A DNA stretch of 64,000 nt from Thermoanaerobaculia bacterium (GCA_048500275.1 JASNYI010000001.1:484341-548340); one strand, 5' to 3'. Positions 2,972 through 19,904 are shown, counted from the stretch's first letter. Translations and numbers: made by a program. Notes: a model not told the origin generated them from the sequence alone.

Positions 2972-5900
2972 TCAGGCGTCTCCGAGGAGCCACCTTCCCA
3001 GCTCCGCCAGCCAAGCGCCTTCGGGGCTCCCGTCCGCCTCCAGCTCCGCCGCGCTCGTCGCCGCGAGGAGCCTCGCGACGTCCGGTCCCGGCGAGCCGAG
3101 CCCGGCCAGAACCTCGCGCAGCGTCGCGTGCTCGTGCGAGACGCCCCGCGCCTCCTGCCACGCGCCGACGCGGGCCGCGAGGACGGGGTCGCCGGGAAGC
3201 GGCTCCTCGCGCTCGTTCGGGACGCCGAGGCCGTTGATCGCCTCGAGGACCCGCTCCTTCCGCGCCCCGTAGTGAAGGCCCGAGAGGTCCCCGGGCAGAA
3301 AGGGGCGGCCGAGGTGGACGTCCTGCCGGCCGAGGCCGAGAGGGAACTCCAGGCGTTTCGCCGCAGGCTCGACGGGAAGGCCGCCGGTGAAGCGGACGGG
3401 GACGATCGGCGCGCCCGACTGGAGCGCCATGTCGATGAACGCGCCGCTCATCTTCTCGACCCGCGTTCGGCAGGAGAGGGAGCGCGTCCCCTCGACGTGG
3501 ACGAGGACCGACCGGCCCGGGCCGGCCATCTCGGCGGCAAGCTCCGAGATGACGCGCGGCAGGCTCGAGCGGTCCTCCCGGTCGAAGAAGGTCATCAGGA
3601 GCGGGTCGCGGACGCCGGGGTAGGAGAAGGAATGCCGGATGAGGCGGCCGAGCCAGGTCGTCCGATGCTCGATCTTGGCGAGCGTCACGGTGGGGACCTC
3701 GTTGAGCGCGGACGCCACGATCGAGAAGAGGAGCGACTCCACGCCGGTCTGGTGGTTCGCGAGGTAGACGACGCTCCTGCCGCGCAGCGCTTCGTGCGCT
3801 TCGGGCGCCTCGACGACGACACGGCGAAGGAACCGCTCGACGAGCCCGTAGTAGAGGTCCTCGACCGGCCACGGACCCCGGCCGAACCAGCGCGTCCAGA
3901 ACGCGCGGACGGGCGACGCGTCGACGCGTCCCCACGGGTCGCCCGAGACGCGCACCCCGGCGTCCTCGCGCGACACGGCGAGGTCGAAGCGGGTGAGGGG
4001 GAGCTGCGAGAGGACGCGGCCAGGGTGGAGCCCGTGCACGGCTGCGACGTGCTCGCGGAGAGCGACGTCCTCGGTGAGGCGGGAGCCGTAGATACGCTCG
4101 ACCGTCCCGGGGAGCCAGTCGCTGGCGGCGACCTCTCCGTCGGTGAGGAGGGTGTCGCCGCCCTCGACGCGCGAGAGGCGCAGGCCGGGAACCGGCGCGC
4201 GGTCCGCGAGGAACGCCCTCCGGAGCGACGGCGCGACGGAGCCGATCGGCCCCTTCGGGAAGCAGGCCTCGACGAGGCGCATCTGACACCAGGCGCCTTC
4301 TTCGCCGACAAGCTGGATGCGGAAGACCGGGTGGTCGGGAGTCGCGAGGAACGGGCGGAGGCGTACCTCGCACCGAACGGTGCCGGAGGCGGGCGCCGGG
4401 CCGAAGAAGTCGATCTCGGGGATGAGGGCCGGGTAGGCGACTTTGCCGGGGTCGTAGGCCGCATCCCACGTGTGGAGCGCGTCGTGCGGGATGCCGTGCG
4501 TGGCGCCGTCGAGGAGCGCGGGGTTGAGCAGCCCCGCCGGAACGCCCGACGCGGCCGAGAGAACGCTCGACGACGCGCCCGGGCCCGTCACCAGCCGCTC
4601 GAGGACCTGGAAGGCGGGGCCGTGGAAGAGCGCGCCGCTCTCGTACGGAAGGGGCGCGGTCTCGCCCTCGGCCGACGGCCAGGGCGCGGGCCGCTCCGGC
4701 CAGGCTCCGTGGAGAACGCGCGCGGTCGCGACGACCCGGTCCGCTCCCGCGGGCCCGCCGCCGCCGTCCGCGGGAGCGGAGAGGAGGCGCGTCGTCGGCC
4801 CCGCGCTCTCGGCCCGAAACCGCTGCGGCCCGTTCGCGAGGCACCAGCCGTTCACGCGCACGTCGCGCAGGCCGATCACCGGCCCGGCGCCGTCCGAACC
4901 GCGCGCGAGGAGGTCGACGAGGACCATCATCGGCAGGGCCGGAACCGTGTAGGTGGGGCAGTGGTCGCGCATCCAGGCCTCGCGCGAAGGGTCGAGGAGG
5001 AGGCCGGCGCCGCGCAGGTCCGCGTCGGCGGAAAAAGCGGGCGAGCCGGCAGCGGACTCACGGGGGTCGCGGCCAGACCGGGGCGCGCAGGAATCGTAAC
5101 GGTCCAGCGTCGCACCGCGCTCGCCGGCAGCCCCCGCGTCGGCCGGCGCCCCCGGGTCTCCCGCGACGATTCTCATCCCGAGCCCCTGCGCCTCGTAGAT
5201 CCGCTGCCCGTTGGCCCAGAGGCTCGCATTCGCGACGGCCCAGACGCCGCGGTCGTCGCGCCCCTGCCCCGTCAGCTCGAGCGTCGTGTGGACGGTGCGG
5301 TGGTGCGGCAGGACCTGGCCTCGGTACTTCCACTTCAGCTCGCGGCCGACCTCGAGCGGCTCGAAGCGGGGCCGCGGGATCCCGTCGTCCATCCGCGTCT
5401 CGAGCATGAAGGCCTGGAGTGTCTGGATCATCGCCTCGATGCCGAGCGAGCCGGGCTGGACGGGATCCTGGAAGAAGTGGGCCTTGAAGAACCACTCGCC
5501 CGGGTCGACGTCCTTCACGGCGCGTATCTGCCCGAGGCTGGCCGCGCCCGCGCCGGGCCAGAAGCCGTCGACGCGGTCGATCATCAGGAGCATCGGCCCA
5601 GCGAGCCGGGGGCGGTCCGAGGAGAAGAAGGCTGCGGGGCGGGAGGCGAAGTCGACGAGGGTGTTGCCCGGACGCGCGAGCAGGTCGCTCTCCGCCTCGC
5701 GCGCCGGCAGCCCCGCCTGGCTCGCGAGCGAGGCCGCGGCGAAGAAGCCGAAGACGGTCTCGAGCCGGTAGACCGGCCGGCCGTCCTGGGAGCATTCGAC
5801 CGCGAACGACACGATGATGGTGGAGCCGCTCGCGGCGATCGACTTCAGCTCGACGCGCGTGACGAGGGGGCCGCCCCCCGGCCTCACTTCGCCGAGGAGG

Positions 5901-8900
5901 GTTCCGGCCCCGTCGAGGTTCCGGAAGCCCAGCTCGCCCTCCACGCTGAGGGCGCAGCCGGCCCAGCTCGAGAGCCAGCCGCAAGGCTGTAGCGCGGCCT
6001 CGAGGAGGACGGCAAACGGCATCGTCCGCGCGCCGTTCTCGCCGAAGTACCAGGCGTCGTCGGGAACGTCGTACTCGACGACGGCGCGGGCGCCCGGCTT
6101 CATCCCCCCCATCTCGCCCTGCACCTCCACGACGCGCGACATGAAGAGGTACGGCGGGCCCGGCAGGCGGGCGACGCGCGTCGGCCCGTCGAAGCGCGCG
6201 TACATCGGGCCGAACGCGCGGGACGGCCGCCCCCAGGCGCAGGCGAGGAGGCTCGCCTCGTCGAACCGGACGCCGTCCGCCTCCGCGACCGGGCGAACGT
6301 CGGCCCTCGCCGCCGCGACGAGCGCCGGCATCGCCTCGAGGGGCCAGTCGGGGACGAGCTGCAGGGCGACGCGACGCGCGTGGAACGCCTTGAGGCCGTC
6401 CACGGTGCAGAGGAGGTCGGCGTAGAGCGTGGGGACGGGGCCGGCGACGACCTCCTCCACGAAGACCTCGGTCACGAGGAGGCGCGAGGCCGGCGTCACC
6501 TGGCCCCGGCACTGGAGCTGGTACGGCAGCTCGGGTTCCGGCTGGAACCGCCAGCCATCGCGCGCGAGGGTGAATCCCATCGCCGCGAGGTGGAACGCCA
6601 TGGCCTGGAGGCACCCCTCGAACATCAGCGTCCCCGGCATGCAGGGGTCGTTCTTGAAGTGCCCCTCGAAGAACCACCGGTCGGGGCGCACGTCCAGCTC
6701 GGCGCGGAGGTATCCCCGGCCCCAGGGGCCGCCCGCGGCCTCGAACGCGGTCACGCGGTCGAGGAGGAGCATCCTCCCTTCCTGGATGCGCGGGCTCTGC
6801 GTGTGGGTCTGAGCGAGCTCGAAGCCCGGCCCGAAGCAGCCGAACGCGTCGCCGCGCGCGAGGGCCTCGAGGTCGGCGCGCTCGAAGCGCGAGCGCGTGC
6901 ACGCGACGGCCGGAGGGTCGAGCCGGGGGCTCTCGACGATCGCCTGCTCCTCCGGGCGCCAGAGGCAGCCCGCCGACGCCGCGAGCTCGGCGTCGGTGAA
7001 GAAGCCGGCCTGCCCCTTCCTGACCGTGAGCTGGGGGCGGCCGCCCTTCAGGCAGTCGTAGTGGAAGAACATGAGCCTCACGTCGCCCTGCGCCGCGTGG
7101 CCGTCGAGGTGGATGTCGAACGCGATCGTCTCCCCCGCGCGCGGGAGGTCTCCGTGGTAGGTGAGCTCGCAGCCGAGGAGCCGGTAGACCCGCTCGCCCC
7201 GGTTGAGGAGGTCGACGCCGAGGTACGAGATGAGCATCAGGTCGGCCTGCCCCGCCTCGATGAGGACGCCCGGCGGCATCCGGCCCTGGTGGAGGTACCA
7301 GGAGTCCTCCCTCACGTCGGTCTCCGTCCGGATCGACCCCTTCCCCATGCTCGCGGGCTCCGCGTCGAGGCCCGTGACCCTGTCCGCGAGGAGGAGCGGC
7401 GGCAGCGGCATCCGCACCTGCCGCTCGTAGCCGTCCTGCGCGGCGAATCGGGGGCCGAAGATCTCGGAGATGCGGCCTCCGGCGTGGATCTCGAGCTCGC
7501 GCCTGTCGAAGGCCGGGCCGACGGGCGCGCGCGGGACCTCCTCGGGACGGGCGGGCGGTGCGTCGATCCGCTCCGTCGGAGCGGCGTCGCGCGCAGGCGT
7601 CGCGACCGGGATCGGCGCGGGCGGCGGCGTGGGCGCCGCCTGGGCCAACGCGGCGGAGACCGGCGCGGGAGGCGGATGAGGAGGCGCCGGGGCCGACACC
7701 GCGCCGCTCGTCGCCTGGAGGAGCGACCCCTCGGCGGCCTGCATCATCGACAGGAAGCGTTCGTGCAACGCCTGTTGCGAGAGGACGAAGTCCTGGTGAA
7801 GGCGCGCGACCTGGCCCACGTGCGCCTGGAAGCCCGCGAGGACGGGCGTCGCTTCGAGAGCCGTGCCTGCCGGAAGCGCGGGCGAGGCCGCGGGCGGCGC
7901 CACGAACGGGAACCCGGTCGCGACCGGCGGCGGCGGGAGAAACGGCCTCGCCGCGGCCGGGGACGCGGGGAAGAGGGCCGCCTCGAGCCGCCGGGGGCTC
8001 CAGTCCTCGTCGAGGACCGGCGGGAGCGGCGGCGCGGGCGCCATCCTGTGAGGCATCGCGAGTCCTTCCGTCGAAGCGCCCGGCTCCACGGGCGGAATCG
8101 CGACCGCCGGCAGGTGCGCCGGGAACGACAGGGCACGGGCGGGCCTCGGCGATCGCGCCGCCTCGGGCAGGAGGGCCGCGAGCGCCTCGTGGCGCACCGG
8201 GAGGCCCGCGGCAAGGAGCGCCGCGACCGCGTCGAGCGTGGCCTCGATTCCGCCCCCCTTCCGGTCGAGGCTCACGACGAGGGCCTCCCGGTCGCCGAGG
8301 ACGCCCCGGAGAAATCGGCCGCAGACGCCCCTGGGGCCGTGCTCCACGAAGACCCGCACCCCGTCCTCCCACGCGGCGAGGACGGCGGGGCGTACGTCGA
8401 GGGTCCGGTCGGCCTGGCCGAGGATCGCTTCCGCGCACGCCTCGCGCGACGGCTCGTACGCGCCGCCCAGCGCATTCGAGTAGAGGCGCGCCCCCGTCGG
8501 CGGTGTGGTGGCGCGCCGGTGGAGGGCGAGCCACTCCTCCCGGACCTCGCCCAGCTCGGGGACGTGGACGGCGAGCGGGTAGCCGAGAGGCAGGCACCGG
8601 TCCCTCCCGAGACGCTCGACGAGCGCGTCGCACGCCGCCGCGTCCCCCGCGACGACGCAATCCGCGTCACCGTGAACGGCCGCGAGGTGAACCCGCTCGA
8701 GCGACGAAAGCACGGCCTCGACCTCTGTCACCGGCGCGAGGACGGCCCAGCTCGCCCAGCGGACGGGTCGGCCCCAGCGCCGCGCGACGGCGTCGAAGGA
8801 GCCCCCCAGCTCGCGCGTGAAGAGTCCCGACGCCTCGCTCTCGTGAACGAGCGCGTCGACGTCGGTCCAGGTGCCGGAGGCGATGAGGGCGTTCGTCTCG

Positions 8901-11836
8901 CCGGAGGAGTAGCCCATCCAGGCGTCGGGAGCGAGGCCGAGGACGCCGCGGGTCAGCTCGACGTGGAGTTGGCAGAGCGCCGACGCGCCCCAGAGCTGCT
9001 CGAGGACGGTGGGATCGCGCTCCTCGTCCGAGTAGACCCACTCGAGGGCGTAAACGAGTGAGCGGCTCCTTCGGCCGAGCGCGCCGGCGAGCGAGGGAAT
9101 CCGCTGGACGAGGTCCCGTCCCATCCCCCGGTACGCGGCCCCGGCCCCCGTGAAGACGAACGCGAGGCCCCCGGACACGGGCCGTTCCGAGAAGTGGATG
9201 CCGGCGCCCGCGGGCGTCCCGCGCTCGAGGAATGCCAGCGCCCGCGCCTGCATCTCCTCGAAGGAGTCGTCGCGCGCGACGAGGACGAGGCGCGCGGGGC
9301 CGTCGAGCCCCTCGCGTCCCGCCTTCAGCGCCTCGGCGACGGCGCGCCGGTCGGCGCCCGCCCAGAAGCGGAGGCGCGGCGCGGGCTCCTCGGTCCAGGG
9401 CGCATGCCCGGCCGCCTCGACGAGGCGGATCGGGGGTGCGTCTCCGCTCACGCGGACCTCCGCCGCGCGAGACCCCTCGACGGGGAGCCAGGGCCGCCCG
9501 TCGGGGAGCCTGCGGAAGTGAAGACCGAGAGCCGCCGCGGCGACGTGGACGAGCGCCGAGGCGGCCGCCGCGTGCCCGAGGCGGGGGACGAGGCTCTCGT
9601 GGCCGTCCGCGAGACCCAGCTTCAAGTGCGTCCCGGCGTCGCCGCCGTCCGCTCCCTCCGCGGCGCTTCCGTCGAACACCGCGTAGATGCGCCTCCCCTG
9701 TCTCTCCGCGTCCTCCAGCCGCTCGAGGACGAGAACGACCGCGGCGTCGCCGGGCGTCCTTCGCCCGGAAGGCAGGAGCTCCTCCGCCGCGCTCCGGTGC
9801 ACCGGCTCGCAGCAGAGGTCGACCGCCCCGACGAGGGCCGCGTCGAGCTCCCCTGCGCGGAGGGCGCGCAGGGCGAGCCCGAGCGCCACCGTCCCCGACG
9901 CCTCTGCGGCCTGCACGGTGAACCCGGGGCCGGTCAGGTCGAGCTGCGAGCTGAGCCGGTTCGCGGGGATGTTCGGCATCGTGCCGACGACGGTCGCGGC
10001 CTCGAGCCGTGGCGCCACGGCGTCGCGGGCTTTCGCGAGCCAGCCGTCCGGCGCCGCCTTCTCGCGTGCCGTCCGCGCGAGACGCCAGCGCGTCCCCCAG
10101 CGTCCGATCTCCCCGTCGGGCTCCATCCCGACGAAGACACCCGTCGTCTCGCGCGGCAGAGGGCCGGTCTCGGCCACCGCCTCGAGGCCGGCGCGGAGCG
10201 CCGCCAGCTGCTGGGGCAGAGTCCGGTCGAGGTCGCGCGGCGGGAAGCGGAGGCCTTCGAGGTACAGCTCGATCGGGCCCATCCTCCCCTCGCCGTCGGC
10301 GTCGAGGAGCGGCTCCCCGGAAAGGAGCGCCGCGGAGAACGCCGCGCGGTCCGCGGCCCGCGCCACCGAGCACCCGAGACCGACGATCGCGACGGGGATC
10401 GGCCCCGGCTCGAGCGCTTCGCCCGACGAGGGAGTGCTCGTGCTGCGCCGCACCGCCGGTCTTCGCACGAACGCACCGGAGGCGCCCGACGCGTCGCCCG
10501 ACGCACCGGCCGCGCCGGTTCCGCCCGCAGCGTCCAGACCGGGGTCGTCCTCGGAGACGACGACGTGGGCGTTGTTCCCGCCGAAGCCGAACGCCGAGAC
10601 CGCGGCGATGCGCGGGCCGTCGGAGGTCCACGGCTCGAGAGCGTGGAGGAGGCGAAACGGCGAGCCGCCGAGCGCGCCCGTCGGGACGTCGGCGTGAAGC
10701 GTCGGCGGCCTCTTGCCCGCGCGCATCGCCTCCATCACCTTGATGAGGCCCGCGGCTCCCGCGACGGTGATGAGGTGCCCGAGGTTCGACTTCAGCGAAC
10801 CGATGGGGACGCCCTCGAGGCCCGCGAAGACGGCGCCCGTGCTTCTCAGCTCGGTCGCGTCGCCGACCGGCGTCCCGGTGGCGTGGCACTCGAGGAGCGA
10901 GACCCGCGAGGGGTCGAGACCCGCGCTCGCGTACGCGGCGCGGATCGCCCGCTCCTGCCCCTCCTCGCCCGGGGCGAGAATGCCCTTGCCGCGGCCGTCG
11001 TTCGAGAGGCCGACACCGCGGATCACGCCGTGGATCGTGTCGCCGTCGCGCCGCGCATCGGCGAGCCTCTTCAGGACGACGAAGGCCGCGCCCTCGGCGG
11101 GAAGGAGCCCGTCCGCGTCGCGGTGAAACGGCCGGGAGCGCCCGCTCCGGCTCAGGGCGGCGAGCGCCGAGAAGCCGACGTGGAGGAAGAGGTCGTCCGC
11201 CGCCTGCACCGCCCCCGCGAGCATCACGTCGGCCTCGCCGTCGTTCAGCCGGTCGCACGCGAGCTTGACGGCGTAGAGCGAGCTGGCGCAGGCGGCGTCG
11301 AGGCAGAAGCTCCCCGCGCCGAGGCCGAGGGCCCGCGCGAGGAGCGAGGCCGTGCCGCCGCTCATGAAGCGGTTCCGCGGGTCGCCGCCTCCCTCTCCCG
11401 TGAAGACGCCCTGCGCGTACGACGCGGCGCCGAGCGAGGGGAACCCGAGGTTCCCGAAGACAGCCCCGGCACGCGGGCGCGAGACGGCGCCCCGCTCCCG
11501 GTCTCCCGCGTCTCCCAGCGCCTCGCGCGCCGTGTGGAGCACCCAGAGGACGAGCGGGTCGAGGCCATCGAGCTCGGACGCGGGGACTCCGAAGCCGCCC
11601 GGCTCCCAGACCGCCTCGAACCCGCGGACGTAGCCGCCCCGGTCCGTCCACGTCCGGTCCGCGGACGGCGACGCCGGGGAGCAGAGGACCTCCTCGGGGT
11701 CGACACCCCACCGGCCGTCGGGCACCGGCCCGACGAGGTCGCGGCCTTCGGCGACGGCCTTCCAGAGCGCGGAAGGGTCCAGGGCGCCGGGCAGGACACA
11801 CGCCCGCCCGACGACGGCGATGGGACCGAACGGCAT
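2972..11836 (-). CDS. pfa3: PUFA-synthase-like megasynthase subunit with domain order KS-CLF-AT-DH(FabA-like)-DH(FabA-like)-AGPAT
   Basis: The 2954-aa protein carries these elements:
- KS active site DAACASSLYAVKLAC.
- A second KS-like domain lacking the catalytic Cys (QAAEASGTVALG), i.e. a chain-length factor.
- An AT domain with GYSSGE.
- Two FabA-type dehydratase regions (FEGHFKNDPCMPG; WFFKAHFFQDPVQPG), each with a pseudo-DH partner.
- A C-terminal PlsC/AGPAT domain with NHQTGVE and VEGTRS motifs.
The ATG at 11836 lies 3 nt after the upstream gene's stop. Confidence 0.9.
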   Translation of the reverse strand: MPFGPIAVVGRACVLPGALDPSALWKAVAEGRDLVGPVPDGRWGVDPEEVLCSPASPSADRTWTDRGGYVRGFEAVWEPGGFGVPASELDGLDPLVLWVLHTAREALGDAGDRERGAVSRPRAGAVFGNLGFPSLGAASYAQGVFTGEGGGDPRNRFMSGGTASLLARALGLGAGSFCLDAACASSLYAVKLACDRLNDGEADVMLAGAVQAADDLFLHVGFSALAALSRSGRSRPFHRDADGLLPAEGAAFVVLKRLADARRDGDTIHGVIRGVGLSNDGRGKGILAPGEEGQERAIRAAYASAGLDPSRVSLLECHATGTPVGDATELRSTGAVFAGLEGVPIGSLKSNLGHLITVAGAAGLIKVMEAMRAGKRPPTLHADVPTGALGGSPFRLLHALEPWTSDGPRIAAVSAFGFGGNNAHVVVSEDDPGLDAAGGTGAAGASGDASGASGAFVRRPAVRRSTSTPSSGEALEPGPIPVAIVGLGCSVARAADRAAFSAALLSGEPLLDADGEGRMGPIELYLEGLRFPPRDLDRTLPQQLAALRAGLEAVAETGPLPRETTGVFVGMEPDGEIGRWGTRWRLARTAREKAAPDGWLAKARDAVAPRLEAATVVGTMPNIPANRLSSQLDLTGPGFTVQAAEASGTVALGLALRALRAGELDAALVGAVDLCCEPVHRSAAEELLPSGRRTPGDAAVVLVLERLEDAERQGRRIYAVFDGSAAEGADGGDAGTHLKLGLADGHESLVPRLGHAAAASALVHVAAAALGLHFRRLPDGRPWLPVEGSRAAEVRVSGDAPPIRLVEAAGHAPWTEEPAPRLRFWAGADRRAVAEALKAGREGLDGPARLVLVARDDSFEEMQARALAFLERGTPAGAGIHFSERPVSGGLAFVFTGAGAAYRGMGRDLVQRIPSLAGALGRRSRSLVYALEWVYSDEERDPTVLEQLWGASALCQLHVELTRGVLGLAPDAWMGYSSGETNALIASGTWTDVDALVHESEASGLFTRELGGSFDAVARRWGRPVRWASWAVLAPVTEVEAVLSSLERVHLAAVHGDADCVVAGDAAACDALVERLGRDRCLPLGYPLAVHVPELGEVREEWLALHRRATTPPTGARLYSNALGGAYEPSREACAEAILGQADRTLDVRPAVLAAWEDGVRVFVEHGPRGVCGRFLRGVLGDREALVVSLDRKGGGIEATLDAVAALLAAGLPVRHEALAALLPEAARSPRPARALSFPAHLPAVAIPPVEPGASTEGLAMPHRMAPAPPLPPVLDEDWSPRRLEAALFPASPAAARPFLPPPPVATGFPFVAPPAASPALPAGTALEATPVLAGFQAHVGQVARLHQDFVLSQQALHERFLSMMQAAEGSLLQATSGAVSAPAPPHPPPAPVSAALAQAAPTPPPAPIPVATPARDAAPTERIDAPPARPEEVPRAPVGPAFDRRELEIHAGGRISEIFGPRFAAQDGYERQVRMPLPPLLLADRVTGLDAEPASMGKGSIRTETDVREDSWYLHQGRMPPGVLIEAGQADLMLISYLGVDLLNRGERVYRLLGCELTYHGDLPRAGETIAFDIHLDGHAAQGDVRLMFFHYDCLKGGRPQLTVRKGQAGFFTDAELAASAGCLWRPEEQAIVESPRLDPPAVACTRSRFERADLEALARGDAFGCFGPGFELAQTHTQSPRIQEGRMLLLDRVTAFEAAGGPWGRGYLRAELDVRPDRWFFEGHFKNDPCMPGTLMFEGCLQAMAFHLAAMGFTLARDGWRFQPEPELPYQLQCRGQVTPASRLLVTEVFVEEVVAGPVPTLYADLLCTVDGLKAFHARRVALQLVPDWPLEAMPALVAAARADVRPVAEADGVRFDEASLLACAWGRPSRAFGPMYARFDGPTRVARLPGPPYLFMSRVVEVQGEMGGMKPGARAVVEYDVPDDAWYFGENGARTMPFAVLLEAALQPCGWLSSWAGCALSVEGELGFRNLDGAGTLLGEVRPGGGPLVTRVELKSIAASGSTIIVSFAVECSQDGRPVYRLETVFGFFAAASLASQAGLPAREAESDLLARPGNTLVDFASRPAAFFSSDRPRLAGPMLLMIDRVDGFWPGAGAASLGQIRAVKDVDPGEWFFKAHFFQDPVQPGSLGIEAMIQTLQAFMLETRMDDGIPRPRFEPLEVGRELKWKYRGQVLPHHRTVHTTLELTGQGRDDRGVWAVANASLWANGQRIYEAQGLGMRIVAGDPGAPADAGAAGERGATLDRYDSCAPRSGRDPRESAAGSPAFSADADLRGAGLLLDPSREAWMRDHCPTYTVPALPMMVLVDLLARGSDGAGPVIGLRDVRVNGWCLANGPQRFRAESAGPTTRLLSAPADGGGGPAGADRVVATARVLHGAWPERPAPWPSAEGETAPLPYESGALFHGPAFQVLERLVTGPGASSSVLSAASGVPAGLLNPALLDGATHGIPHDALHTWDAAYDPGKVAYPALIPEIDFFGPAPASGTVRCEVRLRPFLATPDHPVFRIQLVGEEGAWCQMRLVEACFPKGPIGSVAPSLRRAFLADRAPVPGLRLSRVEGGDTLLTDGEVAASDWLPGTVERIYGSRLTEDVALREHVAAVHGLHPGRVLSQLPLTRFDLAVSREDAGVRVSGDPWGRVDASPVRAFWTRWFGRGPWPVEDLYYGLVERFLRRVVVEAPEAHEALRGRSVVYLANHQTGVESLLFSIVASALNEVPTVTLAKIEHRTTWLGRLIRHSFSYPGVRDPLLMTFFDREDRSSLPRVISELAAEMAGPGRSVLVHVEGTRSLSCRTRVEKMSGAFIDMALQSGAPIVPVRFTGGLPVEPAAKRLEFPLGLGRQDVHLGRPFLPGDLSGLHYGARKERVLEAINGLGVPNEREEPLPGDPVLAARVGAWQEARGVSHEHATLREVLAGLGSPGPDVARLLAATSAAELEADGSPEGAWLAELGRWLLGDA

Positions 11837-11839: not shown

Positions 11840-14800
11840 TCAGGCCTTGCCGTTCGCGACCGGGTACGTGTGCGTCTCGACTCCCGTCAGCTCGGCCACC
11901 GGCCGCCCCTCGTCGTCGGAGAGGAGGACGTCGGTCGTGACCGAGAGGCTCCCGACCTTCCGCCTGTGGGCGGTCGCGGTGAGAAGCCCCTCGCCAGGCG
12001 CCCGGAAGGCGCGCAGGCGGCCGATCGTCGTCGGCAGGCTCGCTCCCCCGAGCATCCGGTGGCCGTAGAGGACGGCGACCTGGAGGCCGCCGTCGAGCGC
12101 CGCCGCGTCGAGCTGCCACGGGCCGTGCTCCCAGCCCGCGCTGGAGACGCCGCGCACGCGGCCGCCCGCGCCGTGGTCCGAGATTCCGTCCATCTCCTCG
12201 ATCAGCTCGAACGCGTCGCGGTGGAAGAGGAGGTCGTCGTAGATCTCCTCCCCCTCCCAGGCGTCGAGCGGCGGGTGCGGTGAGGCTTCTCCCGGCGTCG
12301 CGGGCTCTCTCGAGAGCTCCGCGCGGGCGCTGTAGTGGTGCGTCCCGCCCGCCCCGCGCATGTCGAGCTGCAGCTCCCGGCCGCCGTTCCCCGGGAGCGG
12401 GCGCGCCTCGATCACGAAGCGGTCGCCGCCGTTGTCGAAGCCGCCGAGCCGGATCCCCTTCAGCACCTTCAGGTCGTGGAGCGCGGCGAGGGAGTACCCG
12501 GGGCGCAGCCCGCGCGCGGCCCTTGCGAACCACTCGGCCGCGAGGACGACCGGGACGACCGGCGTGCCGTTGATGGCGTGCCCCGCGAGGTACCCGTGGC
12601 TCCGCCGCGCGACCTTCAGCTCCAGCGCGTCGACGCGCGCGTCGGCGCCCGCGACGAGGAGAGCCTCGGCTCGCGGCTCGCCTCCGAGGACGAGCTCGAC
12701 CACCGACCGGCTCGAACCGCGAACCTCGTCCGCGAACATCCGGGCGCCGTTCGCGAGGGGGATCATCGGGACGCCGAGAGAGGCGAAGCGCTCCTTCAGC
12801 TGCGGCGTCACCATCCCGGCCTCCCACGGCCCCCACCCGAGCGACTTCACGAGGAGGCCGGGACGACGCCGGGCCTCGGCCCACGCCACCTTCGCGAGGA
12901 CCTCGTTGGCCATCGCGTAGTCGGCCTGGCCCGTGTTGCCGCACCGGGCCGAGACCGAGGAGAAGACGCAGAGGAGCTTCAGCGGGTCGCCCTGGGTCGC
13001 CGCGAGGAGCGCGCGGAGCCCCTCGACCTTCGTGTCGAAGACGCGGTCGAACTGCTCGTCCGTCTTGCCGGAGATCTTCCGGTCCGCGAGCACCCCCGCC
13101 GCGTGGACGACGCCCGCGACCGGACCCCACTCCTCGCGCACGCGCTCGAGGACGAGAGAGAGCTCGCGCGCGCCTGCGACGTTCACCGCCTCGTACCGCG
13201 CCTCGCTCCCGGCCGCCTCGAGCGCGGCGAGCGTCGAACGGATCTCGCGGCAGGCGAGGACGTCGCGGACGCGCGCCCCGAGCTCGGCGGGAGCGGGACT
13301 CTCCCCCGCGGCCCGCGCGGCCGCGAGGAGCGCCTTCTTGAGCGCCGTCTCGTCGGCGGCCCCGCGGCAGCAGGCAGGTTCTTCCGCAAGCGCGGTTCGT
13401 CCCAGGAGGACGAAGCGCGCCTTCGAGTCGCGGGCCCACTCCACGAGGCACGCCGAGGTCACGCCGCGCGCGCCCCCCGAGACGACGACGACGTCGCCGG
13501 GACCGATCACGGGCTCTCCCGGCTCGACGTCCCGCTTCACGCTCCTGAGCGTGAACCGCCCACCCGCGGCCGGCAGGGCCACCTCGATCTCGCCTCCCCC
13601 GTGGAGGAGCTCGTCGGCGAGCGCGCGCGCGATCTCGTCCGCGCCGCGCCCCTTCCGCTCGACGTCGATCGCCTTCACCGACGCCCGCGGCCACTCCTGG
13701 CTCGCCGTCTTGACGAGGGCCGGGAGGCCCGAGAGCCATGCGCGGCCCTCGTCCATCGCTCCCATCCCGAACGCCGCGCCCGTGTCCTGCGCGGTCACGA
13801 AGAGGCCCTTTCCGCCTTCGAGCGTGGGGGCAAGGCTGCGCGCCACGCGGAACGCCTCGCGGTTCACGGCGATCGCCTCGTCGAGCCCGCGCACCTCGCA
13901 GAGGCCTCCGAGGTAGACGACCGCCGTCGCGCCGTCCGGGACGGCGGCCGTCGCCCGCGCGTTCACGCCGCGCCGCGCGAGCTCGACCGCGAGCGCTTCG
14001 TCGAGCGCGCCGCCGCCCGTGACCCAGACCTCGCCTCCGCCCAGGAGGCCGGGCTGCGCGAGGCCCGCGGCCGGCGCCTCGATCCGCTCGAGGACGTAGC
14101 GGCCGAGCAGGGCCGGCGCCGGGTGAGAGGCCGAGCCGTCCTCCTCGCGCGGCGGTTCAACCGCTGCGGCCGCCGCGCCGGGGCTCGCGTCGATCGCGGC
14201 CCGCGCCGGGGCCGCCACCTGCACGGGAGCGACCGGCGCCTGGCCCGCGGGGCCGCGCATGTAGTCCACGATCGCACCGAGCGTCCGGAGCGCCGCCATG
14301 TGCGCCATGTCCACCTCCGGCAGCCCCGGCGCCTGCTCCTGCACCGCCGAGAGGATCTCGACCCGCTTGATCGAGTCGATGCCGAGGTCTCCCTCGAGGT
14401 CCATTCCGAGGTTCAGCATGTCGGCCGGGTAGCCCGTCTTCTCGGCCACCACGGCGAGAATCAGCGCCTGGAGGTCCACGGGCGTGGAGGTCGGCGCGTC
14501 CGGCGCCGTCACGCTCGCGCCCGCGGCGTCGGCCGGGGCGGCGAGGCCCCGCATGTAGTCCACGATCGCACCGAGGGTCCGGAGCGCTGCCATGTGCGCC
14601 ATGTCCAACTTCGGCAGCCCCGGCGCCTGCTCCTGCAACGCCGAGAGAATCTCGACCCGCTTGATCGAGTCGACGCCGAGGTCTCCCTCGAGGTCCATCC
14701 CGAGGTTCAGCATGTCGGCCGGGTAGCCCGTCTTCTCGGCCACCACCGACAGCATCAGCGCGTGGAGGTCCACCGCCGCGGCGGGGCGCTCGGGCACGGG

Positions 14801-17800
14801 CGACGCGACGGCGGAGACGGTGGTCGCGGACGGCACGACATACGCCGCGATCGTCCTGGACGCGATGACGGGCTCGGGGCGAGGGGCGACGGGTTCGGGC
14901 CGATGGGCCGCGAGCGCGGGAACCGACGTCATCGCCACCGGTGCGGGTGGGATGGCTGCCTCCGGAACGGCCCGCAGCGGGGTTTCGACGGCCAGGGGCG
15001 CGACCGGCCGCGCGAGCGTCGGCTGGACGTGCGGCAGGCCGGCCGGCAGCGCGTACCCCATCGCCGAGAGCCCTGCGAAACCCGCCTCGGCAACGCGGAG
15101 GTAGGCCGCGTGGCTCTCGGCCATCGCCCGCTGGAACACGGAGTGCGCTTCAGCCGTCTGGCGCTGGCTCTCCTGGAAGGCGAGGACCCAGGCGGAGGGG
15201 CCGGCGGCGGGAGCTGGTGCAGCGAACGGCACGGGTGCAGGCAGAGGCGTCGATGCCGCTGCCGGCGGCGGCGCCGAGGCTGGCGCCGGTGCCTGGGCCG
15301 CAGCCGAAAGGGAAGCGTTCAGCGGATTCACGGTCTCGGCCTTCGACGTCACGGGCTCCTCCACGGGGGCGGCTGCCGGCCGCGGCGGGTTGGGGGCGGG
15401 CAGGTCCCGGGCGCCTCCCGGCGGGGGGTAGACCTTGCCGTAGTTGCTTCCGCAGATCGCGACGGCGAGCTTCGGCGCGGGCGCGCCCGCGGCCGTCGCG
15501 CTCTCGCGGTACTCCTCGAAGAGGCGGGCGGGTTCCATCGGGACACCCGCCGCCGCGAGGCGCACGAGGCCGAGGAGGAGCGACTCGACGCCCCCCTTCC
15601 CCTTGCGGTCGAGGCTCACGGCGGCGTGGGGCCTCCCGTCGAGGATCGCGCCCACGAGGCCCGTGAGGACCGACGCCGGGCCGACCTCCACGAACGTCCG
15701 GGCTCCCGCCTCGTACATCGCCTCGACCATCTCGACGAAGCGGACGGGTCTGGCGATCTGGGCGGCGAGGGCCGCGCGCAGCGAGCCGGGCTCCTCCGCG
15801 TGGGGGGCGGCGGTGGAGTTGGAGTAGACCGGGATCCGGGGCGGCTCGAACGCGACGCCTTCGAGGAACCGCGCGAACGGCTCGCACGAGGCCGAGACGA
15901 CCCCGGAGTGGAAGGCGGTCGCCACCGGGAGGCGCCGCGCGGTGATCCCCTCGGCCGCGAGCCTGCCCTCGAGCTCCTCGACGGCGTCGGAGGGTCCCGA
16001 CACGACGACCTGCGCGGGGCCGTTGTGGTTCGCCACGACGACGCGAGGCGCGAGGCGCGCGAGAAGCTCTCGCGCCCTTTCGACCGGGAGCGTCAGGGCG
16101 GACATCGCCCCGGGAATCGAGGCTGCCTCGGCCATCAGCTCGCCGCGGCGCCGCGCCACCGCGAGGACGTCGTCCGCGCCGAGGACGCCCGCGGCGTGGA
16201 GGGCCACGACCTCGCCGAAGCTGTGCCCGCCCACGAGGTCGGGGGTGATCCCGAGGCGCTCGAGGAGCGAGAGCAGAGAGAGAGACGCGCAGCCGATCGC
16301 CGGCTGCGCCCAGGACGTCTTCGTCAGGCGCTCGCTGTCGCGGCGCCCCTTCCCGGAACCGAACCCCGGCCGGGGGAAGACGACCTCGTGGAGCGGCGTC
16401 CCTTCCTCGAACGCGACGTCCGCCGCGCGGTCCCACGGCTCCCGCGCCGCCTCGAAGGCCATCGCGAGCTCCGCGCCCATCCCGAGGTACTGACTTCCCT
16501 GCCCCGGGAAGAGGAAGGCGACCTTGCCCGCCGATTCGCCGAGACCGAAGGCGCTCCCGTCGGGAAGCGCGAAGGGGCGGGACGGCGCCTCCTCGATCCG
16601 CTTCGCGGCCGCTTCGAGCTTCGCTGCGAGGTCGGCCCCGCTCGTCGCGACGAGGGCGAGGCGCGCCGCCGCGCGGGCGTCGTACGCCCTCAGGCTCGCG
16701 CGGGCGAGGACGTCGAAGGACGCGCCCGAACGCGCCCCGGCCGCGAGGTCGCGCGCCTTTCGGGCGACGTCGGCTGCGTCGGCGCCACAGGCGATGACGA
16801 GCTGCCGGCCGAGGGTCGGAAGCCGCTCCGCGCGCGGGGCCGGACCCCGGTACTCCTCGAGCGCCACGTGGAAGTTGGAGCCCCCGAAGCCGAAGGCGCT
16901 GACGGAGGCGCGGCGCGGGTGGTCTCCCCCGCGAATCCAGGGGCGCGCCTCGGTGCTCAGGTAGAACGGGCTCTCCTCGAGGTTCAGCTTCGGGTTCGGG
17001 GCGTCGATCTTGATGCTCGGCGGGAGGACCCGGTGGTGGAGCGCCATGACGGCCTTGAAGAGGCCAGCGGCCCCGGCGGCGGCCTTGGCGTGGCCGATCT
17101 GGCTCTTGACCGAGCCGAGCGCGCACCACTGCCGATCGCTCCTCCCGCTCTCCGCGAAGACGCTCCGGAGCCCCTCGAACTCGGCCACGTCGCCGGCCTT
17201 CGTCCCGGTCCCGTGCGCTTCCACGAGCTCGACGGTCTCGGGGCCGTAGCCCCCGAGCGCGTAGGCCCGGCGGAGCGCCTTCGCCTGCCCCTCCGGGACG
17301 GGCGCGTAGACGCTCTTCGAGCGGCCGTCCGAGGAGGTGCCGACGCCGCGGATCACGGCGTAGATCCGGTCCCCGTCGCGCTCGGCGTCCGCGAGCCGGC
17401 GGAGGGCGACCATCCCCAGCCCCTCGCCCAGCATCGTGCCGTCGGCCCTGTCGCTGAAGGGGCGGCAGTCGCCGCTCGGCGAGAGCGCCGGGGTCTTGGA
17501 GAAGCACATGAACATGAAGATGTCGTTCAGCGTGTCGACGCCCCCCGAGATCACGAGGTCGCTGTGCCCGAGCTGCAGCTCGGCCACGGCCATCGAGAGC
17601 GCGCTGAACGTCGAGGCGCAGGCGGCGTCGGTGACGCAGTTCGTCCCGCCGAGGTCGAGGCGGTTCGCGATGCGCCCGGCGACGACGTTGCCGAGGAGGC
17701 CGGGAAACGTCGCCTCCTGCCACGGGACGTAGTGCGAGGCGATCCGGTCGCAGATCCCCTTCACCTCGTCCTCGGGCACGCCGGCCTCGCGCAGCGCCTT

Positions 17801-18250
17801 CACCCAGACGGGGCGCTGGAGGCGGCCGATCATCGTGGAGAGAAGCTCCTGGGCGCTCGTGACGCCGAGGATCACCGAGACGCGCGAGCGGTCGAGCGTG
17901 CCGATCCGCTCGCGGGCGGCGTCCTCGAGGACCTTCTGCGCCAGGATGAGCGCGAGGAGCTGCGAGGTGTCCGTCGCCGGGATCGTCGAGGGGGGAACGC
18001 CCCACCCGAGCGCGTCGAAGTCGACCGGGTCGAGGAAGGCGCCGCGGCGCGCGTAGGTCTTGTCGGGGGCCGAAGGGTCCGGGTCGTAGTAGTCCTCGAC
18101 GAGCCAGTGGCTCGCGGGGACGTCCCGGATCAGGTCGGCGCCTGCGAGGATGTCGCGCCAGAAGCCGGTGGCGTCGATCGAGCCGGGGAAGAGGGCGCTG
18201 ACGCCCACGACGGCGATCGGCTGGCGGTTCGGGGAGTCGTCTCGGGTCAT
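11840..18250 (-). CDS. pfa2: PUFA-synthase-like megasynthase subunit with domain order KS-AT(malonyl)-ACP-ACP-KR-DH
   Basis: The 2136-aa protein carries these elements:
- KS active site TDAACASTFSALS.
- AT domain with GHSFGE and AFHS motifs.
- Two nearly identical ACP domains (LGMDLEGDLG[VI]DSIKRVEIL).
- KR domain (Ser...YAMAN).
- PKS-type DH (HGYLAGHAINGTPVVP). Confidence 0.9.
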   Translation of the reverse strand: MTRDDSPNRQPIAVVGVSALFPGSIDATGFWRDILAGADLIRDVPASHWLVEDYYDPDPSAPDKTYARRGAFLDPVDFDALGWGVPPSTIPATDTSQLLALILAQKVLEDAARERIGTLDRSRVSVILGVTSAQELLSTMIGRLQRPVWVKALREAGVPEDEVKGICDRIASHYVPWQEATFPGLLGNVVAGRIANRLDLGGTNCVTDAACASTFSALSMAVAELQLGHSDLVISGGVDTLNDIFMFMCFSKTPALSPSGDCRPFSDRADGTMLGEGLGMVALRRLADAERDGDRIYAVIRGVGTSSDGRSKSVYAPVPEGQAKALRRAYALGGYGPETVELVEAHGTGTKAGDVAEFEGLRSVFAESGRSDRQWCALGSVKSQIGHAKAAAGAAGLFKAVMALHHRVLPPSIKIDAPNPKLNLEESPFYLSTEARPWIRGGDHPRRASVSAFGFGGSNFHVALEEYRGPAPRAERLPTLGRQLVIACGADAADVARKARDLAAGARSGASFDVLARASLRAYDARAAARLALVATSGADLAAKLEAAAKRIEEAPSRPFALPDGSAFGLGESAGKVAFLFPGQGSQYLGMGAELAMAFEAAREPWDRAADVAFEEGTPLHEVVFPRPGFGSGKGRRDSERLTKTSWAQPAIGCASLSLLSLLERLGITPDLVGGHSFGEVVALHAAGVLGADDVLAVARRRGELMAEAASIPGAMSALTLPVERARELLARLAPRVVVANHNGPAQVVVSGPSDAVEELEGRLAAEGITARRLPVATAFHSGVVSASCEPFARFLEGVAFEPPRIPVYSNSTAAPHAEEPGSLRAALAAQIARPVRFVEMVEAMYEAGARTFVEVGPASVLTGLVGAILDGRPHAAVSLDRKGKGGVESLLLGLVRLAAAGVPMEPARLFEEYRESATAAGAPAPKLAVAICGSNYGKVYPPPGGARDLPAPNPPRPAAAPVEEPVTSKAETVNPLNASLSAAAQAPAPASAPPPAAASTPLPAPVPFAAPAPAAGPSAWVLAFQESQRQTAEAHSVFQRAMAESHAAYLRVAEAGFAGLSAMGYALPAGLPHVQPTLARPVAPLAVETPLRAVPEAAIPPAPVAMTSVPALAAHRPEPVAPRPEPVIASRTIAAYVVPSATTVSAVASPVPERPAAAVDLHALMLSVVAEKTGYPADMLNLGMDLEGDLGVDSIKRVEILSALQEQAPGLPKLDMAHMAALRTLGAIVDYMRGLAAPADAAGASVTAPDAPTSTPVDLQALILAVVAEKTGYPADMLNLGMDLEGDLGIDSIKRVEILSAVQEQAPGLPEVDMAHMAALRTLGAIVDYMRGPAGQAPVAPVQVAAPARAAIDASPGAAAAAVEPPREEDGSASHPAPALLGRYVLERIEAPAAGLAQPGLLGGGEVWVTGGGALDEALAVELARRGVNARATAAVPDGATAVVYLGGLCEVRGLDEAIAVNREAFRVARSLAPTLEGGKGLFVTAQDTGAAFGMGAMDEGRAWLSGLPALVKTASQEWPRASVKAIDVERKGRGADEIARALADELLHGGGEIEVALPAAGGRFTLRSVKRDVEPGEPVIGPGDVVVVSGGARGVTSACLVEWARDSKARFVLLGRTALAEEPACCRGAADETALKKALLAAARAAGESPAPAELGARVRDVLACREIRSTLAALEAAGSEARYEAVNVAGARELSLVLERVREEWGPVAGVVHAAGVLADRKISGKTDEQFDRVFDTKVEGLRALLAATQGDPLKLLCVFSSVSARCGNTGQADYAMANEVLAKVAWAEARRRPGLLVKSLGWGPWEAGMVTPQLKERFASLGVPMIPLANGARMFADEVRGSSRSVVELVLGGEPRAEALLVAGADARVDALELKVARRSHGYLAGHAINGTPVVPVVLAAEWFARAARGLRPGYSLAALHDLKVLKGIRLGGFDNGGDRFVIEARPLPGNGGRELQLDMRGAGGTHHYSARAELSREPATPGEASPHPPLDAWEGEEIYDDLLFHRDAFELIEEMDGISDHGAGGRVRGVSSAGWEHGPWQLDAAALDGGLQVAVLYGHRMLGGASLPTTIGRLRAFRAPGEGLLTATAHRRKVGSLSVTTDVLLSDDEGRPVAELTGVETHTYPVANGKA
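14256..14775 (-). repeat. Intragenic tandem duplication (period about 295 bp) encoding the two ACP domains of pfa2
   Basis: Roughly 14256-14478 and 14551-14773 are about 90% identical at the DNA level. Both begin gcatgtagtccacgatcgcaccgag. They encode ACP repeats that differ at only a few residues. Confidence 0.8.
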
Positions 18251-18284
18251 GCGGGCCTCGCTCGGTACGGAGTGCGGGCGCGGC

Positions 18285-19904
18285 TCAGGCGAGCGGGCGC
18301 GGGCGGTAGTCGAAGGCGGAAGGGGGGACGGCGAGGCCGAACGTGCGCAGCTGCTGCGCGCGGGTCACCGCCGCGGCCCCTTCCACGAGGTTGCGTGCGA
18401 CCTGGACGGCGCTCCGGCTCGGGGGCTCCTCGAGGAAGCTCCCCCGTACCCACGAGTTGAACGCGCCCATCGCCGGGCCGCACCAGATCTGGTAGTCGTT
18501 CCGGCGGTCGTCCTGGCCGGCGATCGCCCAGCGGCTCGAGAGGCCGAGGTAGGAGCGGAAGACGAGCGCCATCCGGTGCTTCGGGTCGGCGTCGCCTCTC
18601 TCCGCCTGCCGGGGCTCCCGCTCGGCCCAGAAGGACCGCGTCGAGGCCCAGGCCTCCTCGAACGTCGCGCGAAGGAGCTCCCTCTCGACGCGCGCGCGCT
18701 CTTCGGCCGGGACGCTCTCGAACGAGGCGTTGTCGCGGTAGAGCTCGTAGAGCTTCCGCGCGCGGACGGCGAACATCGTCCCGCGCCGGAGCACCTGCAC
18801 GGTGACCCCCATCTCGAACATGTCGGCGGCGGGCGCCATGATCACGTCCGCCATCCCCGCTCTCGCGAGGAGGTCGCGTCCCGTCGCCGAGAGCCCGCTC
18901 TCGACGCAGGCCTGGTTCACCGAGCCCGTCACCACGTAGGCGGCGCCGAGGGCGAAGGCCGCCGCGACCGAGGAGGGCGTCCCCAGGCCGCCCGCCGCCC
19001 CGATGCGGACGGGGCGCGCGTAGCCTCGATCGGCGGCGATCCGATCCCTCAGGCCGAGGAGCGTCGGCAGGAGCGCCGTCAGCGGGCGGTTGTCGGTGTG
19101 CCCGCCCGAGTCCGCCTCGGCCGTGACGTCCTCGGCCAGCGGCAGCCGGGCCGCGAGACCCGCTTCGGCAGGCGTGAGCCGGCCGTTCTCGACGAGCGCG
19201 CGGAGGATCTCTCCCGGCGGGGGCTCGAGGAAGCGGACGGCGACCTCCTCGCGCGAGACCTTCGCGAAGAGGTGGTTGCGGCGCCGGATCCGCCCCGAGG
19301 GCTCCTCGACGAGCCCGCTCGCGGCGTAACGGACCACGGCCGGCGTGAGGGCCATGTAGGCGGAGGCCTCGACCCGCCGCACCCCGCGCTCGAGGTAGAG
19401 GCCCGCCACGGCCTCCTCGAGGGCCGGCTCGTGCGGGCTGTGAATCAGGTTCGCGCCCCAGGGGAGGCCCGCGGGGTCGAGCTCGCTCCGCAGCTCCTCG
19501 AGCGCGGATTCCACGCGCCCGAGGGAGAGCCCGGCGGCGCCGAAGAAACCGAGGAACCCGTTCCTCGCCATCTCGGTCACGAGGCGGACGGAGGCGATGC
19601 CGTTCGCCATCGACCCGGTCACGTAGGGGAAGCGGGTGCCGTGGGCCTCGCAGAACGAACGGTCGCCGAGCCACTCGGGGTAGAGCGGCGGGAGCGAGGC
19701 GAGCAGCGCCCAGGTCTCCCCGTGGCCGTTCCGGGAGGCATCCAGGACCTCCCCGCCGACGCCGAGCCCGAGCCGGCCGGCGGGGTCCCGCACCACGTGG
19801 CTCGTCGTCCGGACCTCGAGGACGGCCTCGCCGAGCTCGCCCGGGCTGAAGGCGGGAGCCTGTTCCGCCGGACGCCAGCGGTGCGGGAGGGAGTCAGCGG
19901 TCAT
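18285..19904 (-). CDS. pfa1: PfaD-type enoyl reductase (FMN-dependent, 2-nitropropane-dioxygenase-like)
   Basis: The translation carries conserved PfaD-family blocks (VTGSMANGIASVRLVTEMARNGFLGFFGAAG...; GGHTDNRPL; TGSVNQACVESG). The ORF track starts it at 19934, but codons 19905-19934 are AT-rich (atgccaaattttgag), unlike the rest of the gene. The ATG at 19904 (MTADSL...) is preferred. Confidence 0.8.
   Translation of the reverse strand: MTADSLPHRWRPAEQAPAFSPGELGEAVLEVRTTSHVVRDPAGRLGLGVGGEVLDASRNGHGETWALLASLPPLYPEWLGDRSFCEAHGTRFPYVTGSMANGIASVRLVTEMARNGFLGFFGAAGLSLGRVESALEELRSELDPAGLPWGANLIHSPHEPALEEAVAGLYLERGVRRVEASAYMALTPAVVRYAASGLVEEPSGRIRRRNHLFAKVSREEVAVRFLEPPPGEILRALVENGRLTPAEAGLAARLPLAEDVTAEADSGGHTDNRPLTALLPTLLGLRDRIAADRGYARPVRIGAAGGLGTPSSVAAAFALGAAYVVTGSVNQACVESGLSATGRDLLARAGMADVIMAPAADMFEMGVTVQVLRRGTMFAVRARKLYELYRDNASFESVPAEERARVERELLRATFEEAWASTRSFWAEREPRQAERGDADPKHRMALVFRSYLGLSSRWAIAGQDDRRNDYQIWCGPAMGAFNSWVRGSFLEEPPSRSAVQVARNLVEGAAAVTRAQQLRTFGLAVPPSAFDYRPRPLA

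Follow-up and report, generated by a model that had tools for sequence, protein, structure and literature searches.

The window analysed here is a stretch of 64,000 nucleotides from a Thermoanaerobaculia bacterium (GCA_048500275.1 JASNYI010000001.1:484341-548340), in which positions 2972-19904 hold three co-directional genes of the minus strand, pfa1, pfa2 and pfa3, related to genes for polyunsaturated fatty acid (PUFA) synthases. The enoyl reductase (ER) gene comes first, followed by a pfaA homologue and then by a fused pfaBC homologue, with intergenic gaps of 34 nt between pfa1 and pfa2 (18251-18284) and 3 nt between pfa2 and pfa3 (11837-11839). The GC content at third codon positions (GC3) of the three open reading frames (ORFs) is 0.93-0.94, with the coding-type codon-position profile of real genes, in a host genome of 73-75% GC. 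The cluster is an intact type L ("myxobacterial") PUFA synthase, an already described design, present here in an uncultured acidobacterium of the class Thermoanaerobaculia. The original prediction, made from the sequence of the window, had proposed a PUFA-synthase-like cluster of myxobacterial Pfa organisation with these coordinates, this gene order, a single strand and tight gaps; all of these details were correct, and the assignment itself is supported by family models and catalytic motifs, by a profile comparison and by two structure models of high confidence. The domain string it gave held for every domain listed but lacked one, an additional dehydratase (DH4) that follows the FabA-type dehydratases and precedes the C-terminal acyltransferase. 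The features are collected in Table 1.

Table 1. Genes, domains and regulatory features of the pfa locus (positions counted from the first letter of the window; aa, residues of the encoded protein).
Feature	Position	Strand	Basis
pfa1, PfaD-family enoyl reductase, 539 aa	18285-19904	-	TIGR02814, NMO and FabD_helical_ins matches
pfa2, KS1-AT1-ACP-ACP-KR-DH1, 2136 aa	11840-18250	-	TIGR02813 (PfaA), Pfam order, motifs
KS1 of Pfa2, aa 10-515	16706-18223	-	PF00109, PF02801, PF16197
AT1 of Pfa2, malonyl-type, aa 579-866	15653-16516	-	PF00698 (171.8 bits); GHSFGE, xAFH
ACP1 coding repeat	14500-14784	-	PP-binding, LGVDSIKRVEI; direct repeat family D1
ACP2 coding repeat	14206-14490	-	PP-binding, LGIDSIKRVEI; repeat of ACP1
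KR of Pfa2, aa 1588-1810	12821-13489	-	PF08659 (110 bits)
DH1 of Pfa2, PKS-type dehydratase, aa 1879-2132	11855-12616	-	PF14765 (31 bits), PF21089 match, H-x3-G-x4-P
pfa3, KS2-CLF-AT2-DH'/DH2-DH'/DH3-DH4-acyltransferase, 2954 aa	2972-11836	-	Pfam, NCBIfam
KS2 of Pfa3, aa 5-430	10547-11824	-	PF00109, PF02801; DAACASS, Cys183 invariant
CLF, KS-like without active-site Cys, aa 480-840	9317-10399	-	Second PF00109 stretch
AT2, PfaB-type acyltransferase, aa 893-1168	8333-9160	-	PF00698 (35.6 bits), TIGR02816 (PfaB) match
Two FabA-type dehydratase/isomerase units, each with pseudo-DH	5162-7519	-	PF07977 (297.8 bits), four stretches
FabA-type cores	DH2 6362-6898; DH3 5189-5602	-	PF07977
DH4, PKS-type dehydratase, aa ~2275-2530, ~255 residues	4247-5014	-	Profile, structure model, motifs
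C-terminal module, aa 2530-2954: linker, PlsC/GPAT-family acyltransferase, helical tail	2975-4249	-	PF01553, model
Acyltransferase details	Pfam core 3389-3784; NHQTGVE 3737-3757	-	PF01553
Divergent TetR-family regulator	19972-20577	+	TetR_N, TetR_C_14
Two exact copies of GCCACTCAGTGC (core palindrome CACT-C-AGTG)	19931-19942, 19948-19959		Starts 17 nt apart

Pfa1 passes the curated PfaD-family model TIGR02814 with 614 bits against a cut-off of 449. Its start is the ATG at 19904, the resulting protein of 539 residues is recorded in NCBI assemblies, and its 90% cluster includes a protein from a Thermoanaerobaculia metagenome-assembled genome (MAG) that is named PfaD family. Pfa2 scores 1442 bits with the PfaA model TIGR02813, above the cut-off of 1010, and its Pfam matches run in the order ketosynthase (KS), acyltransferase (AT), two PP-binding domains of the acyl carrier proteins (ACPs), ketoreductase (KR) and the dehydratase (DH) family PS-DH. 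It carries the motifs DAACAS, GHSFGE, TAFH (malonyl-type AT) and HAINGTPVVP, the latter representing the H-x3-G-x4-P of DH1; Cys211 of KS1 is invariant across 88 Pfa2 homologues.

In Pfa3, a KS is followed by a second KS-like domain, an Acyl_transf_1 domain, four FabA stretches forming two pairs of pseudo-DH and DH, and a PF01553 domain. Alignment identifies the second KS-like domain as a chain-length factor (CLF), since Glu645 (QAAEAS) takes the place of Cys183 from the KS motif (DAACAS), and no cysteine occupies this column in any of 57 Pfa3 homologues. The AT of Pfa3 (AT2) contains GYSSGE (residues 975-980, positions 8897-8914) and LAVH with His1091, both of them conserved. GYSSGE had been singled out in the original prediction as a departure from GHSxG; it is indeed present, but it is no oddity, as it occurs in 54 of the 55 AT2-bearing Pfa3 proteins aligned, the single exception having GCSSGE, and represents the published PfaB signature. 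In bacterial PfaB acyltransferases, as described in a crystal-structure paper, the His of GHSxG is replaced by an essential and defining Tyr (GYSxG), and the Ser-His dyad (xAxH) is kept without the malonyl-binding Arg; PfaB acts as a terminal acyltransferase (PMC12895367). Reading GYSSGE as the mark of an inactive AT was rejected, because the motif is near-universal in AT2-bearing homologues and functional in PfaB. His1726/Asp1730 and His2120/Asp2124 of the FabA-type DHs are invariant in the aligned homologues, and the catalytic residues of the KS, AT1, AT2, DH2, DH3, DH4 and acyltransferase domains are all invariant or nearly so (57 Pfa3 and 88 Pfa2 proteins).

The Pfam match of DH4 is marginal (PF14765, 22 bits against 23.7), and single-sequence searches of the PDB with DH4 and with the acyltransferase region gave no match. 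A profile of DH4 built from 53 homologues, however, aligned in hhalign with the profile of DH1 from Pfa2 at 98.6% probability (E = 9e-16, 231 columns), and the catalytic positions are occupied by His2292, FHGPAF and D2443xxxH2447, all conserved, with His2292 present in at least 90%. An AlphaFold model of residues 2260-2954 of Pfa3 (51 sequences) reached a mean predicted local distance difference test score (pLDDT) of 93.3 and a predicted template modelling score (pTM) of 0.90, and its best Foldseek matches in the PDB were the polyketide synthase (PKS) dehydratases CurH, CurJ, GphF DH1 and MlnB (E about 1e-12, target TM 0.64-0.70). Weak PS-DH matches are found at the same position in Pfa3 of Sorangium So ce56 and of Sulfidibacter. 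A DH4 has been described in Pfa3 of Minicystis rosea and is absent from that of Aetherobacter; the active-site His of an inserted DH4 alters the product spectrum, and control of the product has been attributed to DH4 and Pfa3 (PMC6731297).

The C-terminal domain of Pfa3 clearly belongs to the superfamily of PlsC and the glycerol-3-phosphate acyltransferases (GPATs). It matches PF01553 with 46 bits (cut-off 23), and its core motifs NHQTGVES (His2695, Glu2700) and VEGTR are at least 90% conserved in the aligned domain-bearing Pfa3 proteins, including those of So ce56 and Sulfidibacter; NHQxGxES and EGTR are common to the window Pfa3, Sorangium So ce56 and Sulfidibacter, a producer of eicosapentaenoic acid (EPA). 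The model of residues 2530-2954 (pLDDT 95, pTM 0.92) gave only four significant PDB matches, all of them GPATs (human GPAT1 and the squash and algal plastid enzymes) and not PlsC. The 425-residue module of linker, core and tail was found in 415 clusters at 50% identity (E <= 1e-30), and among the full-length proteins listed it forms the C-terminal end of products of 2000-3000 residues. Domain searches thus recovered both assignments that the original prediction had named as open to refutation by them, the CLF and the C-terminal 1-acylglycerol-3-phosphate acyltransferase (AGPAT) domain, the latter as a PlsC-family acyltransferase by its PF01553 score, shared motifs and GPAT-like fold.

Only two ACPs are present in Pfa2, as had been predicted, with two GxDS sites; their coding repeats are 87% identical in nucleotides at a spacing of 294 nt and were found by a direct-repeat search, while Tandem Repeats Finder did not report them. 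The unusual status given to this number did not hold. When ACPs were counted as GxDS sites in the ACP region of 88 aligned Pfa2 proteins, the query included, one was found in 13 proteins, two in 35, three in 22, four in eight, five in eight, and six and seven in one each, so that two is the commonest count and one to three is the rule among these closest relatives. Two ACPs occur in 12 of the 16 relatives with at least 68% identity and one in the remaining four, whereas Pfa2 of So ce56 and of Sulfidibacter have five each. A collapse of the ACP repeats during assembly was considered and rejected as unlikely, because the two copies differ at 13% of nucleotides, because the contig is 2.36 Mb long and because all 12 full-length relatives of about 70% identity, from independent assemblies, likewise have two ACPs. 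The number of ACPs is known to scale the yield, leaving the product profile unchanged (PMC5067506).

The host of this myxobacterial-type architecture is an acidobacterium of the class Thermoanaerobaculia. Pfa3 has an exact match in NCBI and is identical at 1980 of 1981 residues to MCL4807184.1, a protein from a "Thermoanaerobaculia bacterium" MAG. Thermoanaerobaculia MAG proteins also share 90% clusters with five other products of the window (Lon, UppP, MoxR, an S9 peptidase and a molybdopterin oxidoreductase). All named GroEL matches at 86-98% identity are Thermoanaerobaculia, "Holophagales" or Acidobacteria MAGs, and a myxobacterial host or a mislabelled MAG was rejected on this ground; the Pfa3 of the window shares only about 53-56% identity with its myxobacterial counterparts (Nannocystaceae, Enhygromyxa). 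The characterised Aetherobacter and Minicystis sequences did not appear among the top matches (the top 120 for Minicystis rosea). In a neighbour-joining tree of 57 Pfa3 proteins, the window falls in a tight clade at 87-90% alignment identity, sister to a Thermoanaerobaculia clade at about 70%. The next sister clade has Pfa3 proteins of about 2130-2170 residues without DH4 and acyltransferase. At locus L007 (10001-17068), Pfa3 has 2129 residues and ends after the second FabA-type DH, a TetR gene lies upstream, and a gene of 224 codons with a faint match to ACPS, a phosphopantetheinyl transferase (PPTase) family, starts 3 nt after pfa3. Pfa3 of Sulfidibacter and Sorangium lacks AT2 and lies on a branch separate from the window clade; given the position of Sulfidibacter, the Acidobacteriota carry at least two lineages of the type L system. 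An out-of-frame translation of the high-GC 3' end of pfa3 also gave tblastn matches of 47-48% in Sandaracinaceae MAGs (L002 and L003). These Sandaracinus matches were rejected as homologues, being artefacts of alternative frames, which at such high GC can yield spurious "homologues".

It is probable, with fairly good confidence, that the cluster encodes a functional iterative type I synthase, resembling fatty acid synthases (FAS) and PKS, that makes PUFA by the type L design in this uncultured acidobacterium. Read from homology, the synthesis would begin with a PPTase encoded elsewhere, which would activate both ACPs of Pfa2. AT1 (GHSFG, xAFH) would load malonyl units, the chain would be extended by KS1 and by the KS2/CLF pair, and KR would reduce each beta-keto group. 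Dehydration and the setting of cis double bonds would fall to DH1, the two FabA-type dehydratase/isomerases and DH4, and the enoyl reductase Pfa1 would saturate selected cycles. Release of the chain is expected via the PfaB-type AT2 and/or the C-terminal PlsC/GPAT-family acyltransferase, the latter presumably transferring it straight to a glycerol-phosphate lipid precursor. The likely outcome is an active synthase that supplies a glycerolipid with an unsaturated acyl chain, and about two thirds of the confidence in it falls to a PUFA of C20-C22.

Several points weigh against this interpretation. Characterised synthases share only about 50-56% sequence identity with the cluster, and no paper was found that links Thermoanaerobaculia with PUFA synthesis or gives lipid data. 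The activating enzyme is only assumed, because a PPTase is absent from the 64-kb window, as the original prediction had noted: no ORF scanned in the window matched PF01648, and tblastn of the window with the cluster-linked PPTase of the sister clade gave a best E of 1.2. In Aetherobacter and Sorangium (PMC8436480) and in Acanthopleuribacter and Sulfidibacter (PMC8841776), the PPTase is likewise encoded at a separate locus. Other points concern the acyltransferase. The curated AGPAT models were not reached (TIGR00530, 37.7 bits against 103; PRK15018, 18.5 against 501), and the acidic residue of the motif is Glu2700 (H-x4-E) rather than the Asp of PlsC (H-x4-D) in 53 of 53 domain-bearing homologues. 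By these sequence comparisons the domain is not an equivalog of PlsC. Judging also from its modelled fold, which is closest to the sn-1-acylating GPATs, the acceptor may be lysophosphatidic acid (acylated at sn-2) or glycerol-3-phosphate, and thus possibly one other than lysophosphatidic acid. The acceptor cannot be read from the sequence, because the AGPAT score is below the cut-off, Glu stands for Asp and the fold is nearest to GPATs; in the literature, too, transfer to 1-acylglycerol-3-phosphate is described only with "presumably" or "seems to" (PMC6731297, PMC6163206). A bolder proposal, which we regard as rather doubtful, is that the fused acyltransferase is no PlsC-like AGPAT but a soluble GPAT-like enzyme taking the chain directly from the ACPs of Pfa2, possibly onto glycerol-3-phosphate, and that uncultured Thermoanaerobaculia, which are common in sediments and soils, are an unrecognised, oxygen-independent source of long-chain PUFAs. 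If this were true, the accepted release step of type L synthases would change, as would the way in which PUFAs serve to indicate eukaryotes or marine Gammaproteobacteria as biomarkers.

The original prediction held that the product could not be inferred from the sequence, and we agree, as the domain set matches the type producing arachidonic acid (AA) and docosatetraenoic acid (DTA) while the family also includes an oleic/linoleic-acid type. A C20-C22 polyunsaturated product is our best guess by analogy, because the domain set equals the Minicystis AA/DTA type and because the nearest cultured relatives are arachidonate- and EPA-producing Nannocystineae, the group to which Enhygromyxa and Nannocystaceae belong (PMC6163206). 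A further point against it comes from Sorangium, whose members of this family have been assigned to an oleic/linoleic-acid type (PMC6163206), so that membership of the family is no guarantee of a long-chain PUFA. The synthase could thus be active but make a chain that is short or has little unsaturation (C16-C18, mono- or di-enoic). Sorangium cellulosum Pfa, which has both a DH4-like and an acyltransferase domain, would be the precedent, its cluster being described as oleic/linoleic-acid type (PMC6163206, PMC4882568), and two ACPs suggest a modest flux (PMC5067506). This outcome nevertheless appears unlikely, as Pfa3 of Sorangium and of Sulfidibacter lacks AT2 and branches apart from the window clade, whereas the characterised AT2-bearing synthases of the myxobacteria Aetherobacter and Minicystis make C20-C22 PUFAs (PMC6731297, PMC4882568).

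The gene next to pfa1, divergently transcribed, encodes a TetR-family regulator that adjoins pfa1 in the same position in loci L006, L007 and L008, and the unit TetR-pfa1-pfa2-pfa3 is kept in Thermoanaerobaculia MAGs at about 70% identity. The 67-bp intergenic region between tetR and pfa1 (19905-19971) contains the two copies of GCCACTCAGTGC, the only two matches in the 64 kb. Four intergenic loci were compared (window 19905-19971, L006 8268-8337, L007 1983-2025 and L008 about 8240-8330), and the blocks AGGATATAAC and CACTCAGTGCCA are invariant across these four, whose Pfa proteins are only 63-70% identical. This region is a likely promoter overlapped by a candidate TetR operator, the duplicated palindrome, through which the divergent TetR would probably repress the operon. 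What is new here is this conserved divergent TetR gene with its duplicated palindromic box, together with the sister clade that has a putative PPTase gene in place of DH4 and AGPAT.

The acyl product might instead feed into a specialised lipid or a hydrocarbon (an OleABCD polyolefin, for example, or another secondary lipid) rather than ending as an acyl chain of membrane phospholipids. Shulse and Allen suggested that type L systems may feed olefin synthesis in some hosts, with ole genes in Nakamurella and Plesiocystis (PMC3098273). The ORFs scanned across the 64 kb contain, however, no ole, AMP-ligase, thiolase or NRPS (non-ribosomal peptide synthetase) gene; linkage of ole genes is not obligatory. 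The fused glycerolipid-type acyltransferase argues for delivery to a glycerolipid, and the unit conserved in relatives consists only of TetR and pfa1-3. A specialised product is therefore improbable in our judgement, and membership of an olefin or heterocyst-glycolipid clade, raised in the original prediction, found no support, the cluster having neither linked ole genes nor the heterocyst-glycolipid layout.

The flanks of the pfa cassette differ between the window and L006/L008 despite GroEL proteins that are 98% identical, the Pfa proteins being about 70% identical, and this combination suggests relocation or separate acquisition. In the window (1-2900 and 20600-24500), the cassette is flanked by genes for an S9 peptidase and a GNAT and, across from them, by an outer-membrane barrel gene. 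In L006/L008, its neighbours are sucCD, ndk and an M24 peptidase at one end and Band_7 genes at the opposite end. Such different contexts suggest mobility and, with no PPTase nearby, could be taken to indicate a silent or decaying, horizontally acquired cassette that forms no product in its Thermoanaerobaculia host. We consider this very improbable: the 17 kb of pfa reading frame shows no interruption and has a normal GC content by codon position, every catalytic residue is intact, identical or near-identical proteins come from several independent assemblies, and both the regulator and the candidate operator are conserved.

The remaining ORFs scanned comprise housekeeping, DMSO-reductase-type and Bat aerotolerance genes, with no plsC gene among them. 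A three-gene set of the DMSO-reductase family (molybdopterin subunit, 4Fe-4S protein and DmsC-like anchor) lies on the minus strand at 24564-28547, a few kb from pfa, and is consistent with an anaerobic respiratory lifestyle. A row of MoxR-DUF58-BatA-VWA/TPR-BatD genes at 53750-61490 resembles the Bacteroides aerotolerance operon and is followed by a GAF-GGDEF protein (61500-62654). Three further ORFs of small or medium size with coding GC3 (20605-21111, 32679-33770 and 34578-35099) gave no informative Pfam match, one having a weak DUF4347 match and two none.

The cluster does not overturn current understanding, but it extends the hosts of type L PUFA synthases to a second class of the Acidobacteriota. 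With 415 module-bearing clusters, furthermore, the description of the acyltransferase-tipped Pfa3 in reviews as a "unique characteristic of myxobacteria" does not hold. An active cluster would mean that Thermoanaerobaculia in the environment produce polyenoic lipids without oxygen, which bears on the interpretation of lipid biomarkers, and more natural AT2, DH4 and acyltransferase variants would be available for engineering. The TetR operator candidate and the sister clade with its putative PPTase gene for DH4-AGPAT offer small but usable handles on regulation and chain release.

The type L layout, with pfaD first and a fused pfaBC ending in an "AT", was catalogued in 2011 by Shulse and Allen in Actinobacteria, Delta- and Gammaproteobacteria (PMC3098273) and later characterised in Sorangium, Aetherobacter and Minicystis (PMC4882568, PMC6731297, PMC8436480). 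As this layout was already catalogued and characterised, and the literature search gave no paper on PUFA synthesis in Thermoanaerobaculia, the cluster represents an additional example of a known design. The gammaproteobacterial PfaABCD(E) types A/B of Shewanella and Moritella have the same catalytic repertoire, including an AT2 with GYSxG and xAxH (PMC12895367), but differ in a separate PfaB, PfaD in last place, four to six ACPs, the absence of a fused acyltransferase and DH4, and a pfaE that is usually linked. With members of the PlsC/GPAT superfamily (E. coli PlsC; squash and human GPAT, PDB 1k30 and 8e4y) the C-terminal domain shares PF01553, the motif His, EGTR and the GPAT-like fold; unlike them it is fused to a megasynthase, has Glu for Asp, scores below the AGPAT cut-off and is flanked by a conserved linker and helical tail of its own that occur only together with Pfa3-like proteins.

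Among the type L systems, the EPA-producing acidobacteria Sulfidibacter corallicola and Acanthopleuribacter pedis have a pfaD-pfaA-pfaB/C cluster (PMC8841776) and share with the window an acidobacterial host, the gene order, DH4, the acyltransferase and a distant pfaE, but theirs lacks AT2, has five ACPs and a Pfa3 that branches nearer to Sorangium. Sorangium cellulosum So ce56 has the same gene order, the NHQxGxES and EGTR motifs and a DH4-like domain, and differs in a Pfa3 without AT2 (about 50-53% identity), five ACPs and its oleic/linoleic-acid type. The system of Aetherobacter fasciculatus, which makes docosapentaenoic and docosahexaenoic acids (DPA/DHA-type; PMC4882568, PMC6731297), shares the order pfa1-pfa2-pfa3, the AT2 in Pfa3 and the C-terminal AGPAT; its PPTase lies at a separate locus, and none lies in the window. 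Its Pfa3, in contrast, is without DH4, and insertion of an active DH4 shifts its product spectrum (PMC6731297). Both Minicystis-type traits are present in the window, namely an AT2 with GYSxG and xAxH between the CLF and the DHs, and a DH4 before the AGPAT. The AA/DTA-type synthase of Minicystis rosea (PMC6731297, PMC8436480) agrees with the window in gene order and, with AT2, DH4 and a C-terminal AGPAT in Pfa3, also in its domain set, but its host belongs to the Myxococcota rather than the Acidobacteriota.

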